Positions 29,806-32,000 of a DNA stretch of 32,000 nt are shown one piece after another (the first letter of the stretch is position 1; the number at the start of each line of letters is the position of its first letter). Source of the stretch: Candidatus Methanoperedens sp. (lineage in GTDB: Archaea > Halobacteriota > Methanosarcinia > Methanosarcinales > Methanoperedenaceae); NCBI GenBank assembly GCA_041494705.1, contig JBGQBI010000003.1, positions 90,001 to 122,000 on the forward strand, in the 5' to 3' direction. Under the pieces are notes generated by a model that was not told where the DNA came from, did not search any database, and saw only the letters and a list, made by a program, of their open reading frames with translations. The position numbers and the translations under genes were made by a program.

Positions 29806-30672
29806 TTATATTTTCAGGTGTCCCTTTTCCATCAAATAATTCTTCAAAGCCTCTTCCCAGTTTTCCATCTCAAGCCCGTAATTTTTAAGCTTGGTACTAA
29901 CGAGCGGCGAGAACATAGGTCTTCTGGCTTTTGATTGCAGGTTATTGGTCTTAGTCGGGGATACGTTTGTCTCTATGCCCAGCGTTTCAAAGATTGCTCT
30001 TGCAAACTCATACCATGTGCATATGCCGCTGTTGGCTACATGATATATCCCGAAGGGTAACATTCTCGAATGGACATTCTTTATCATACTGGCTGCATCT
30101 TTTGTATAGGTCGGGGACATTATCATATCATCCACAACTTTAATTTCTTCGTTGTTGTGCGCTTTTTTTATCATTGTCTCAACGAAATTTCCACCCTTGC
30201 CGCTTGCTCCAGCGGCCCCAAACAGACTGGAGGAACGTATGATATAGTGGTTTTCAAACGTATTTCTGACAAAATATTCACCTGCGAGTTTGCTGTTCCC
30301 ATACACATTTAATGGATTCGGGATATCGTTTTCAATATAAGGTTCTTTTTTCCTGCCATCAAAGACATAATCAGTACTTATATGCATCAAAATTGCATTC
30401 AAATCTTTAGAGATTAGCGCGATGTTTCTTGCACCCAGCGCATTTACTGCAAAAGCCCTGTCAGCAAAATCTTCTGCATCATCCACCCTCACATAAGCCG
30501 CGCAGTTGATTACAACATCAGGCTGTATTTTTTTTAAGATTTCCATCGACGTTTTAAAATCAGTAACATCGATATCTGCATGAGTCAGGGGGGTAATTTC
30601 GTCTTTGTTTTCAAATACCCTTACAAGGTCAAAACCCAGTTGCCCGTTCGCCCCGATTACAGCAATTTTTAT
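29806..30672 (-). CDS. rfbD: dTDP-4-dehydrorhamnose reductase; the frame lacks a canonical start codon for its Rossmann N-terminus (putative ATA start at 30670-30672)
   Basis: The ORF track starts at ATG 30546 (MEILKKIQPDVVINCAAYVRVDDAE). The same frame upstream encodes IKIAVIGANGQLGFDLVRVFENKDEITPLTHADIDVTDFKTS, which is the NAD(P)-binding GxxGxxG region of RmlD. See the finding for details. Confidence 0.75.
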   Translation of the reverse strand: MKIAVIGANGQLGFDLVRVFENKDEITPLTHADIDVTDFKTSMEILKKIQPDVVINCAAYVRVDDAEDFADRAFAVNALGARNIALISKDLNAILMHISTDYVFDGRKKEPYIENDIPNPLNVYGNSKLAGEYFVRNTFENHYIIRSSSLFGAAGASGKGGNFVETMIKKAHNNEEIKVVDDMIMSPTYTKDAASMIKNVHSRMLPFGIYHVANSGICTWYEFARAIFETLGIETNVSPTKTNNLQSKARRPMFSPLVSTKLKNYGLEMENWEEALKNYLMEKGHLKI

Positions 30673-30709
30673 GACCAGAACCCCCTGTTCTCTCTTGCAA
30701 GTCTCTCCT

Positions 30710-31195
30710 TCATGGCTCGTCCACCTTAAAAGGACTATTCTCCATGCCTTCGTATCTTATTTCGTCCACGGTTTCTTTCTTCCCCCAGCCTGCATAGAGT
30801 TTATTGGGGAGATTTATTATCAGACCCGGTTTGTCTCCAACATTTTTATAAGCGTGCACTATCCCCGGAGGAACTAATACGATTTTATGTCCATTTTGAC
30901 TAATGTCTAAAATCATTTTGTTTTTATATGTTGAAGAATTTTTTCTGTTATCCCATAGTATTAACTTAAAGTCCGAAGGACCTAAAAAACAAAAAAAATC
31001 CGTTTGTTCCAGATGCTCGTGAGGTCCTCTCGCAACCCCGGGGTAAGTCAGCGATATGTAGGACATCACAGGAAAAATATCTTCACCAATCATATCTTTC
31101 CTGAAAAGTTCTATAAGCCAGCCCCTGTCGTCTTCATATTTAATCAAATTTTTTATAATAATGTCGTTAATTTTCCCGTCTTTGAAACCGCTCAT
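30710..31195 (-). CDS. rfbC: dTDP-4-dehydrorhamnose 3,5-epimerase (cupin-type)
   Basis: 161 aa. YEDDRGWLIELFRKD, GVARGPHEH and VLVPPGIVHAYKNVG are RmlC-like cupin motifs. The gene lies between the rfbA-like and rfbD genes. Confidence 0.8.
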   Translation of the reverse strand: MSGFKDGKINDIIIKNLIKYEDDRGWLIELFRKDMIGEDIFPVMSYISLTYPGVARGPHEHLEQTDFFCFLGPSDFKLILWDNRKNSSTYKNKMILDISQNGHKIVLVPPGIVHAYKNVGDKPGLIINLPNKLYAGWGKKETVDEIRYEGMENSPFKVDEP

Positions 31196-31215
31196 AAAGG
31201 GTTACGCCCCTTTAT
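31194..31215 (-). promoter_or_regulatory. Stem-loop pairing the rfbC start codon region with its G-rich Shine-Dalgarno-like tract
   Basis: The minus-strand RNA reads AUAAAGGG-GCGUAA-CCCUUUAU-G. The 3-prime arm contains the A and U of the rfbC AUG. The 5-prime arm contains the only purine-rich SD-like tract (AAAGGGG). Confidence 0.35.
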
Positions 31216-31479
31216 AACGTCCCGAGTCACGTCTCGGGAGGACGTGTCCACGTATGCCGAAGGCATACGTGTTGTCTTTGCTAAAGGTTTCAAAAAAGCG
31301 ACACCTCGCTTTATGCGGTATCCACGTAAACCGATACCCCGGTTTACGTGGTGTTGGGGTATGCTTTGCATACCCCTCGTTTGATAAACCTTTCTTAAAG
31401 GTTTGCGTATGCCTGTGGGCATACGTGTCTGCGAAGTAAAGCGGCACAACGGTTTTTGATAAAACTTTCTTAAAGTTTT
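31194..31479. repeat. Array of nine short perfect stem-loops built from recurring words, filling the rfbA-rfbC spacer
   Basis: All hairpins were verified base by base:
- 31194-31215: 8 bp.
- 31217-31245: 6+4 bp with a 3-nt bulge.
- 31249-31271: 10 bp.
- 31295-31312: 7 bp.
- 31322-31351: 12 bp.
- 31356-31376: 9 bp.
- 31386-31404: 8 bp.
- 31406-31425: 8 bp.
- 31461-31479: 8 bp. Confidence 0.85.
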
Positions 31480-32000
31480 TCATACCTCTATCTCCGAATA
31501 GTCCCCTATCATCAGTTTCAATGCTTTATGACTGTTATTTTTTAAAACTTTTACATCTTTTCCGATCAGGCTGTCCTCCAATCTTTCTATTCCCCTTACC
31601 TGCGCGTTGTCGAGAATAACACAATGCTCGATGGATGAATCAACAATTTGGGTATTGTTCCCGATACTGGTATAAGGACCTATGAAAGAGTTCACGATAT
31701 GCGAGTTCTCACCTATTGCCACAGGACCTCTAATAATACTGTTTTCAACAACAGCGCCCCTGTCAATTTTTACTCGTCCTGTCACCCTTGTTTTATCATC
31801 AAGACTCCCGCATATTTCAGTTTTAACATATTCATCCAGAATTATGCTGTTTGCTGTGAGGATGTCGTCTTTTTTTCCAGTATCAAGCCACCAGGATTTG
31901 AGAATTTCACTTTTTACTTTGCAGCCCATGTTGATTAATTCCTGTATGGCATCCGTGATTTCAAGTTCGTTGCGCGAGGATGGTTTTATCCTATCAATAG
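31480..32000 (-). CDS. rfbA: Glucose-1-phosphate thymidylyltransferase, long form with a C-terminal left-handed beta-helix (C-terminal part; continues past the window end)
   Basis: The frame is open to position 32000, beyond the listed Met at 31929: ...IKPSSRNELEITDAIQELINMGCKVKSEILKSWWLDTGKKDDILTAN. Hexapeptide repeats follow (VVENSIIRGPVAIGENSHIVNSFIGPYTSIGNNTQIVDSSI). Confidence 0.75.
   Translation of the reverse strand, partial: IDRIKPSSRNELEITDAIQELINMGCKVKSEILKSWWLDTGKKDDILTANSIILDEYVKTEICGSLDDKTRVTGRVKIDRGAVVENSIIRGPVAIGENSHIVNSFIGPYTSIGNNTQIVDSSIEHCVILDNAQVRGIERLEDSLIGKDVKVLKNNSHKALKLMIGDYSEIEV

Follow-up and report, generated by a model that had tools for sequence, protein, structure and literature searches.

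Small palindromic repeats, including repetitive extragenic palindromic (REP) sequences, bacterial interspersed mosaic elements (BIMEs), MITEs (miniature inverted-repeat transposable elements) and Rickettsia palindromic elements (RPEs), are common; how they persist in dense, translationally coupled operons is seldom accounted for, and coverage of archaea is poor. Palindrome-associated transposable elements (PATEs), derived from IS200/IS605 insertion sequences, are known in archaea. RPEs survive in expressed regions as reading is left unbroken, the insertions being in frame and of lengths compatible with an open reading frame (ORF; PMC10969869), and IStrons, which combine an insertion sequence with a group I intron, leave the mRNA by self-splicing (PMC4227781). 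Here, we analyzed a 32,000-nt stretch of Candidatus Methanoperedens sp. DNA (contig JBGQBI010000003.1, positions 90,001 to 122,000; hereafter the window, whose own numbering is used below), in which 286 nt filled with hairpins separate the minus-strand genes rfbA and rfbC. This spacer is probably one copy of a non-autonomous, modular palindromic mobile element of Candidatus Methanoperedens (ANME-2d), which would persist in operons by means of a relay ORF that preserves translational coupling. Judged by its sequence, the family belongs to the small non-autonomous palindromic repeats and appears to be set apart by its insertion site at ATGA overlaps, by the relay ORF and by a hairpin holding the downstream start codon.

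In relatives with 93%, 84% and 76% RfbC identity, rfbA and rfbC share a 4-nt overlap (...GAGATAGAGGT-ATGA-GCG...) without any spacer. The window reads ...GAGATAGAGGT-ATGA-AAAACTTT...CCCTTT-ATGA-GCGG..., the stretch from AAAACTTT onward adding 284 nt and a second ATGA between flanks that are otherwise collinear. Together with both flanking ATGA (5' copy, 31483-31480; 3' copy, 31195-31192), the element occupies 31192..31483 on the minus strand; the inserted DNA amounts to 288 nt (284 nt and one ATGA, e.g. 31479-31192), and the corresponding relatives (loci L161, L163 and L165) read GAGGT-ATGA-GCG at this point, spacer-free. At the same ATGA, a relative with 74% RfbC identity (L167/L168) carries a different array of 216 nt (T-T'-G-s-G-E-G-S, in the hairpin classes described below). 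A preliminary description of the window had suspected an insertion, which the relatives bore out by lacking the spacer precisely at the stop/start overlap. A second such pair was found between rpoA1 and rpoA2, where the junction is empty in L169, L170 and L171 (GAAAGA-ATGA-C/G...) and filled in L152 (GAAAGA-ATGA-(80-nt T-G-S)-ATGA-CCAG). An assembly artefact was ruled out for the window copy, as the identical 93-aa ORF across the array is recorded on three contigs, one of them 2.07 Mb long.

The inserted sequence is dispersed through the genus. Scanning metagenomes with the palindrome common to hairpins H3 and H8 retrieved 110 loci, and BLAST of window positions 31000-31700 against them returned 99 high-scoring segment pairs (HSPs) in 53 loci, all within 31189-31495 and none in the flanking genes; this is the sole part of the window with homology to dispersed copies. 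Module copies of 95-99% identity sit at unrelated gene junctions in many Methanoperedens genomes, so the dedicated, locus-specific RNA element or independent non-coding RNA considered earlier found no support, and the suggested search for a dispersed repeat delivered a family instead. A 22-mer from the spacer matched 47 loci among species-representative genomes. Forty-four of these are named Candidatus Methanoperedens and stem from 10 metagenome-assembled genome (MAG) isolates, including M. nitroreducens Mnv1, with up to nine matches per MAG; the others are two loci of 'uncultured archaeon LFW-280' and one of a MAG labelled 'bacterium'. The latter (L128, JAHIOG010000031.1, MAG 'bacterium KR13_S3.mb.119') is a 7.9-kb contig whose element has the same flanks as that of L094, and is probably a misbinned archaeal contig. 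All-against-all comparison, in which array borders were set by repeat coverage since BLAST-defined borders left many arrays unresolved, yielded 188 arrays of 40-614 nt in 157 loci, exactly one of them in the window. Neither the rest of the window nor a further 8 kb of the source contig held a second copy, only chance 10-11-mers. Identical modules at about 16 junctions that are unrelated and come from different species ruled out local duplication and chance. Viral contigs and plasmid and phage collections held no copies, giving no sign of sharing with known mobile replicons there. A literature search returned no published description of such elements in Methanoperedens, and Rfam 15 gave no match for 30900-31800 on either strand at E values up to 10, in keeping with the initial impression that this is not any described element.

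Array ends often coincide with stop and start codons across the family. The terminal S hairpin is followed by ATGA in 32 of 43 cases, TGA precedes the terminal T hairpin in roughly 27 of 38, and of the 21 arrays that possess both termini, 13 carry an ATGA at each. As far as sequence goes, a 4-bp target duplication and the ATGA-adjacent insertion of an element that itself ends in ATGA would look alike. In 20 of 22 complete elements a long ORF begins at the 3' ATG, placing the S hairpin on a real gene start, and in about half of them a long ORF ends at the 5' TGA. Arrays lie at co-directional junctions in sense (43) or antisense (15) orientation, or between divergent (12) or convergent (4) genes. 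Their content differs between species even at orthologous sites, measuring 147, 222, 243 and 300 nt in L130, L158, L149 and L132, and 111 versus 210 nt in L006 and L129, with L009 and L116 differing too, which indicates quick turnover.

In the window, the relay ORF comprises 93 codons (31202..31483, minus strand). Its ATG (31483-31481) overlaps the rfbA TGA (31482-31480), and its stop, a TAA (31204-31202), lies within the terminal hairpin's loop, 6 nt short of the rfbC ATG (31195-31193), which belongs to the 3' ATGA of the element. Among 23 distinct complete elements, 18 measure a multiple of 3 nt and stay open between the 5' ATG and the TGA within the 3' ATGA. In three (the window, L140 and L135; length mod 3 = 1) the ORF stops at the S-loop TAA, in one it continues in frame into the downstream gene, and the 23rd 'element' is a composite T...S span in L048 (about 420 nt, with non-element DNA) with a frame-0 stop after four codons. 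Limiting the count to spans of at most 410 nt, which excludes this composite, the remaining 22 elements (3625 nt) contain no interior stop trinucleotide in frame 0, compared to 28 and 47 in the two remaining sense frames; the antisense frames hold 54, 46 and 38. Reduced to distinct sequence contexts, the sense frames hold 0, 18 and 25 stops; the chance of a stop-free frame 0 under an even spread across frames is about (2/3)^43. Similarly, when T/S arrays of 100 nt or more are considered, 76% have a sense frame open over at least 90% of its length, versus 30% antisense (shuffle median 0.70).

An open frame kept this strictly might denote a mobile mini-gene, encoding a functional small and very basic protein (MKNFKKVLSK... 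to ...IKRGVAL or ...IKGRNPL) to which the hairpins are secondary. Apart from the ORF being open in 22 of 23 elements, the same peptides return at its N- and C-termini, since the end modules T and S are read in a fixed frame there, and gene callers have annotated some copies. Yet each module type is read in two or three frames across elements, giving unrelated peptides (PLYFAD versus RRFTSQT; IKRG versus KARC), and compensatory changes in the stems alter amino acids. Both observations point to selection for an open frame, not for a protein. ORF length at orthologous sites ranges from 27 to about 130 codons, neither the 93-aa ORF nor other spacer ORFs matched Pfam, NCBIfam or PDB, and relatives do without the ORF, making a mini-gene improbable. 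Among 5.8 billion proteins the 93-aa ORF has only 21 homologs, all weak and all Methanoperedens hypotheticals; as gene callers rarely call such ORFs, the count is no guide to family size. Of the conserved coding ORF that the preliminary description had allowed for, the open frame held, but relatives lacking the ORF altogether and modules read in different frames did not fit. The relay ORF is, on this reading of the sequences, presumably a translated spacer rather than a protein gene.

In the mechanism we propose, ribosomes finishing rfbA at its TGA would start again at the overlapping AUG and read through the 93 codons of the relay ORF, opening the hairpins on their way. Termination just ahead of the rfbC AUG would then unmask the start codon held in the S hairpin and lead to reinitiation on rfbC, such that termination-reinitiation coupling between rfbA and rfbC would survive a 284-nt insertion. 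Uninterrupted translation might, in addition, shield the transcript from factor-dependent polarity. The hairpins would most likely serve as DNA-level signals for mobilization and module shuffling by an enzyme, and the element would be selfish DNA made nearly harmless. An earlier idea, that the spacer uncouples rfbA from rfbCD, sits poorly with a stop-free ORF that begins on the rfbA stop, ends 6 nt before the rfbC AUG and looks built for coupling. In both Haloferax and E. coli, reinitiation coupling is all but lost once about 20 nt of untranslated spacer intervene, and no junction is commoner than the 4-nt overlap (PMC10666635; PMC6728339). With somewhat more confidence than doubt, we favor a translationally transparent mobile element that targets ATGA overlaps, restores the upstream stop, threads a stop-free relay ORF through its transposition hairpins and hands the ribosome on by a terminal hairpin with Shine-Dalgarno (SD) sequence and AUG.

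The arrays are built from hairpins of 19-30 nt, located between genes and sharing CACGT/ACGTG feet. We distinguish classes T (AAAACUUUaagAAAGUUUU, -4.3 kcal/mol), P (CACGUAUGCCn3-4GGCAUACGUG, -17.1 kcal/mol), G (GGGGUAUGCaaaGCAUACCCC, -16.1 kcal/mol), K (CCACGUAAACCGn6CGGUUUACGUGG, -21.2 kcal/mol), E (UCCCGAGn6CUCGGGA, -11.8 kcal/mol) and S (CAUAAAGCGAggugUCGCUUUAUG, -13.4 kcal/mol; variant AUAAAGGGgcguaaCCCUUUAUG, -12.6 kcal/mol). On the mRNA strand, the AT-rich T hairpin comes first and S last, with the GC-rich P, G, K and E modules interchangeable between them; T-P-S is the commonest form, and T-G-S, T-G-E-S, T-G-K-S and T-P-S-G-S occur as well. All modules of an array share one orientation, opposite-strand HSPs being short palindromic matches. 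Complete elements range from 84 to 403 nt, the smallest having 84 nt (T-G-S) or 111 nt (T-P-S or T-G-E-S). The terminal S hairpin pairs the downstream AUG, and the common S1 loop contains an SD-like GAGGUG; the terminal S2 variant of the window has only a weaker G-rich AAGGGG in its place.

The window array reads T-P, T-G-K-S, (t)-P-E-S. Its first 189 nt share about 98% identity with L150, a complete element from a different locus and species; the rest matches the 3' part of L129, and relative to L129 the array differs by an 81-nt T-G-K block bounded by the TACG(T)GG foot common to the P and K hairpins. The degenerate tandem modules proposed at the outset are recognizable in these matches. Module gain and loss proceeds in blocks that are multiples of 3 nt, and shuffling may occur by short-homology recombination or slippage at the hairpin feet, as the shared borders suggest. 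Stem pairing is maintained in 96.9% of cells in P and 97.7% in G, each with compensatory changes at three pairs (for P, for example, CG 9 / GC 6), compared to 9-64% of cells in slid controls.

Perfect palindromes with a common CACGT/ACGTG foot might also form a DNA-level array, either sites for a palindrome-binding protein or mobile promoter/terminator modules. By sequence reading, the T hairpin resembles an archaeal TFB recognition element and TATA box (BRE/TATA; AAAAC-TTTAAGAA) on both strands, and related P/E arrays without T and S occupy AT-rich non-coding regions of other contigs. Against this, we know of no protein partner, and both the strong sense-strand frame signal and the alignment with start and stop codons are features that translation has and DNA binding does not; we regard such an array as highly improbable.

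Folding of the spacer is exceptional. All nine hairpins (H1-H9) of the preliminary description were recovered where it had placed them, covering about 200 of the 286 nt in stems or loops as it had estimated. H1 and H3-H9 are perfect stem-loops as described; H2 is not, consisting of a perfect 7-bp core (TCCCGAG/CTCGGGA) and a bulged extension. CACGT/ACGTG indeed recurs, with a count of seven rather than six, and the repeat TTTGATAAAnCTTTCTTAAAGkTTT, spaced at 75 nt, is present together with a degenerate third copy. Eighteen of the 33 perfect hairpin matches (at least 7 bp) in the window fall into the spacer. The shuffling control that had been proposed gave a minimum free energy of -117.5 kcal/mol for the minus-strand RNA (the mRNA), compared to -71.4 +/- 5.2 for dinucleotide shuffles (z = -8.9); the plus-strand RNA reached z = -8.2, and no shuffle folded as well on either strand.

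Such stability inside operons (-12 to -21 kcal/mol for the hairpins) might also suit a host-exapted RNA element of REP/BIME type, with hairpins acting as exonuclease barriers, processing sites, thermosensors or attenuators that set the rfbA:rfbC ratio, and the ORF incidental or secondary. Bacterial REP elements stabilize upstream mRNA; in the window, the hairpin at 31295-31312 is followed by U6 and could pause or terminate archaeal RNA polymerase, and the S hairpin masks a start codon. What this account leaves unexplained is the absence of frame-0 stops, the indels in multiples of 3 and the ATGA-to-ATGA geometry. Moreover, insertions in essential stoichiometric operons (rpoA1/rpoA2) of some species and not of close relatives are what a dispensable element would show. 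As the sole explanation, exaptation is unlikely; an RNA role could coexist with a mobile element carrying a relay ORF.

Set beside the described systems, the family resembles REP/BIME in build: short GC-rich palindromic units (20-40 nt in REPs), extragenic and in high copy number, form mosaic arrays from a small set of motifs between operon genes, co-transcribed in REP/BIME and presumably here, with a composition that varies between strains. In contrast to BIMEs, whose REPs alternate in orientation, the Methanoperedens modules keep one. Their feet are CACGT/ACGTG; of the GTAG or CGTC head of REPs, a CGTC occurs 5' of the E stem. REPs neither sit on stop/start overlaps nor carry a relay ORF or start-codon hairpin, and their hosts are enterobacteria and pseudomonads with a RAYT (REP-associated tyrosine transposase), whereas the host here is an archaeon and no RAYT was found in the collected loci. 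BOX (Streptococcus pneumoniae; boxA-boxBn-boxC) and Correia (CREE, Neisseria) repeats are likewise modular or hairpin-forming, intergenic, co-transcribed and of varying module number; they are confined to bacteria, without ATGA-overlap targeting or an open relay frame, and Correia elements have terminal inverted repeats and a TA target. The preliminary description had named a MITE-like insertion, which is apt in the broad sense of small, non-autonomous, dispersed and hairpin-rich. The family is small, dispersed and non-autonomous as classical MITEs are (84-403 nt; 188 arrays, 157 loci), but has no terminal inverted repeats, the 5' AAAACTTTaagAAAGTTTT and 3' CATAAAGCGAggtgTCGCTTTATG being self-palindromic and not mutual inverted copies, and no parent insertion sequence was found in the collected loci. 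An integron attC/cassette was ruled out, as rfbA and rfbC stay adjacent in relatives, only the array comes or goes and there are many perfect hairpins; a CRISPR was ruled out on anatomy.

RPEs share palindromic, mobile repeats and insertions that stay translatable, but lie inside coding genes and join the host protein, whereas the Methanoperedens element is an ATGA-bounded ORF of its own between genes, with modules read in several frames. No RPE-type in-frame insertion within a host ORF was seen: the single intragenic copy (L156, 7001-7216) runs antisense in an aminotransferase-like coding sequence, with TCAT on both sides (ATGA on the element strand). That gene is continuous in L057 (around 1894), is broken into at least three ORFs in L156 and is probably a pseudogene; a reading of L156 as functional gene splitting was dropped, since the host gene is fragmented and probably dead. 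With IStrons the family would share the strategy of carrying a device that makes insertion harmless to host expression; unlike them, it seems to remain part of the mRNA, with ribosomes reading through it. In its way of working, the element would combine traits of BIME and BOX mosaics, of RPEs and, in concept, of IStrons. PATEs offer hairpin ends without terminal inverted repeats, strand polarity and a specific tetranucleotide alongside, and precise excision of the peel-and-paste kind would leave an intact empty site, as relatives show. IS608 has subterminal hairpins that lie 10-19 nt away from the cleavage sites; here the terminal hairpins abut ATGA, and no tnpA/tnpB partner with matching ends was found in the collected loci. 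The hairpin ends without terminal inverted repeats, the polarity and the fixed tetranucleotide recall IS200/IS605- or RAYT-type transposition, and our guess is that the element moves by such a single-strand route.

Several points weigh against a mobile element with a relay ORF. That the relay ORF is translated and affects coupling is predicted from sequence, and mobility is deduced from presence/absence patterns; fully clean empty/filled pairs number only two (rfbA/rfbC and rpoA1/rpoA2). A phmmer search of 2994 open reading segments (at least 90 aa) with IS608 TnpA and E. coli RAYT queries found no Y1/HUH homolog in the roughly 0.85 Mb of collected loci, in which no T...S pairs enclose a gene as a candidate autonomous element would (longest span, 420 nt). 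About half of the complete elements precede a gene without an abutting upstream gene stop, and about a quarter of the arrays at co-directional junctions are antisense and lack a relay frame; gene context was called by a longest-ORF heuristic. The window copy itself, at 292 nt (mod 3 = 1), has its ORF stop in the S loop and not at the terminal ATGA. At the L7Ae-nusA junction, arrays are not at a simple ATGA and come with duplications of about 45 nt. Loci were retrieved via two sequence patterns, which biases module frequencies, and copies share modules and hence are non-independent. Finally, the strand asymmetry of G.U versus A.C mismatches (8 versus 6) is uninformative on RNA versus DNA folding.

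The L7Ae-nusA arrays (L169, 11446-11640; L170, 2944-3185; L125, 1080-1265) have empty counterparts in L171, L172 and L144. An extra module, TTGATGAACC...AAAAAGGAATGATAATCAATGGGTTCATCAA, with 10-bp inverted ends around an SD sequence and ATG, flanks a T-G-S or T-P-S core in two or three copies; the core is reversed in L125. The relay ORFs at this junction end 7 nt before the real nusA ATG.

Were the proposed reading true, it would reveal a previously unrecognized route for selfish DNA into essential operons such as rpoA1/rpoA2. The family offers a testable answer on how such repeats persist: insertion at ATGA overlaps, a relay ORF kept open independently of its peptide and a start-codon hairpin at the exit. 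It bears on archaeal translation reinitiation, where coupling fails beyond about 20 nt, and might supply synthetic biology with a naturally occurring, portable cassette for translational coupling, in which subunit stoichiometry could be tuned through length and hairpin content. For Methanoperedens gene calling, these arrays would give each genome dozens of assembly breaks and spurious "hypothetical proteins". As arrays differ between close relatives, they could serve as strain-typing markers for ANME-2d populations, and the hairpin vocabulary is a handle for finding the responsible recombinase.

In mRNA order, all on the minus strand, the window array opens with the T hairpin H9 (31461..31479, AAAACUUUaagAAAGUUUU) directly after the rfbA TGA. 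A degenerate S-like hairpin or linker follows (31436..31455, AAACCGUUGUGCCGCUUUAC), which holds the 22-mer of the genome scan, and then the P hairpin H8 (31406..31425, CGUAUGCCcacaGGCAUACG), of the class whose stems covary. The second T hairpin, H7 (31386..31404, AAACCUUUaagAAAGGUUU), leads to the G hairpin H6 (31356..31376, GGGGUAUGCaaaGCAUACCCC; covarying class) and the K hairpin H5 (31322..31351), the latter two with the class sequences and energies given above. The internal S hairpin H4 (31295..31312, AAAGCGAggugUCGCUUU), followed by UUUUG in place of AUGA, marks the junction of two fused elements. Beyond it lies a degenerate T module (31276..31290, AAACCUUUAGCAAAG), with the same junction in L129, and the P hairpin H3 (31249..31271, CACGUAUGCCuucGGCAUACGUG), which is 1 nt longer than that of L129, putting the relay ORF one frame off. 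The E hairpin H2 (31217..31246) has the class core with a bulged ACG/CGU extension. The terminal S hairpin H1 (31192..31217, the hairpin itself at 31194-31215; UUAUAAAGGGgcguaaCCCUUUAUGA, -12.6 kcal/mol) carries the rfbC AUG within its 3' arm and the TAA stop in its loop.

The surrounding genes run, on the minus strand, in the order rfbA-like, spacer, rfbC-like, rmlD and nop5. The window contains the 3' part of a long-form, rfbA-like glucose-1-phosphate thymidylyltransferase (31480..32000; Pfam NTP_transferase and hexapeptide/LbH), called as a 356-aa gene on the source contig, and an rfbC-like dTDP-4-dehydrorhamnose 3,5-epimerase (30710..31195; Pfam PF00908) with orthologs in Methanoperedens. 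The original gene assignments hold, with NTP_transferase and LbH domains upstream and the dTDP-sugar epimerase and RmlD downstream, all on the minus strand. Two Logan short-read contigs that carry the identical rfbC break off within the hairpin array (L002 starts at window position 31211, L003 at 31236), as is usual at repeats, and element arrays probably cause contigs to break in Methanoperedens assemblies more generally.

Related P/E arrays without T/S ends occur in L022 (49-290), L054 (9440-9679), L062 (1751-2118) and L049 (963-1107). They are preceded by a different conserved motif (GAAACCCTGCGGGTTCTCGAC) in AT-rich non-coding surroundings and probably represent a sister subfamily without the relay-ORF design. 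A short tandem motif, GCAGATAAACGCAGATGAACGCAGAT or ATCTGCGTTCATCTGCGTTTATCTGCGG, near several arrays (L165, 5339-5383; L048, L022, L026, L049) and also downstream of rmlD in M. nitroreducens, looks like another dispersed repeat family.

Downstream of rfbC, the window lacks rfbB (dTDP-glucose 4,6-dehydratase), which lies between rfbC and rmlD in L161, L163, L165 and L167. At 30669-30713 (minus strand), an in-frame deletion that runs between two TGAA microhomologies has left a 14-codon ORF (MKERLARENRGFWS*) that keeps the last 13 rfbB codons and whose ATG overlaps the rfbC stop (ATGA), so that a second relay-like mini-ORF joins rfbC to rmlD. None of ATG, GTG and TTG stands at the conserved rmlD N-terminus (IKIAVIGANGQLG, which Pfam matches from residue 2 onward); the codon at the start position is ATA, overlapping the upstream TAA as ATAA (30670-30672). 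This ATA is conserved in three genomes (also L161, around 4478, and L163, around 4476), and gene callers place the start at an internal ATG (246 aa) or an upstream ATG. The arrangement suggests reinitiation at a near-cognate start; the repeat element of L009 likewise starts with ATAA.

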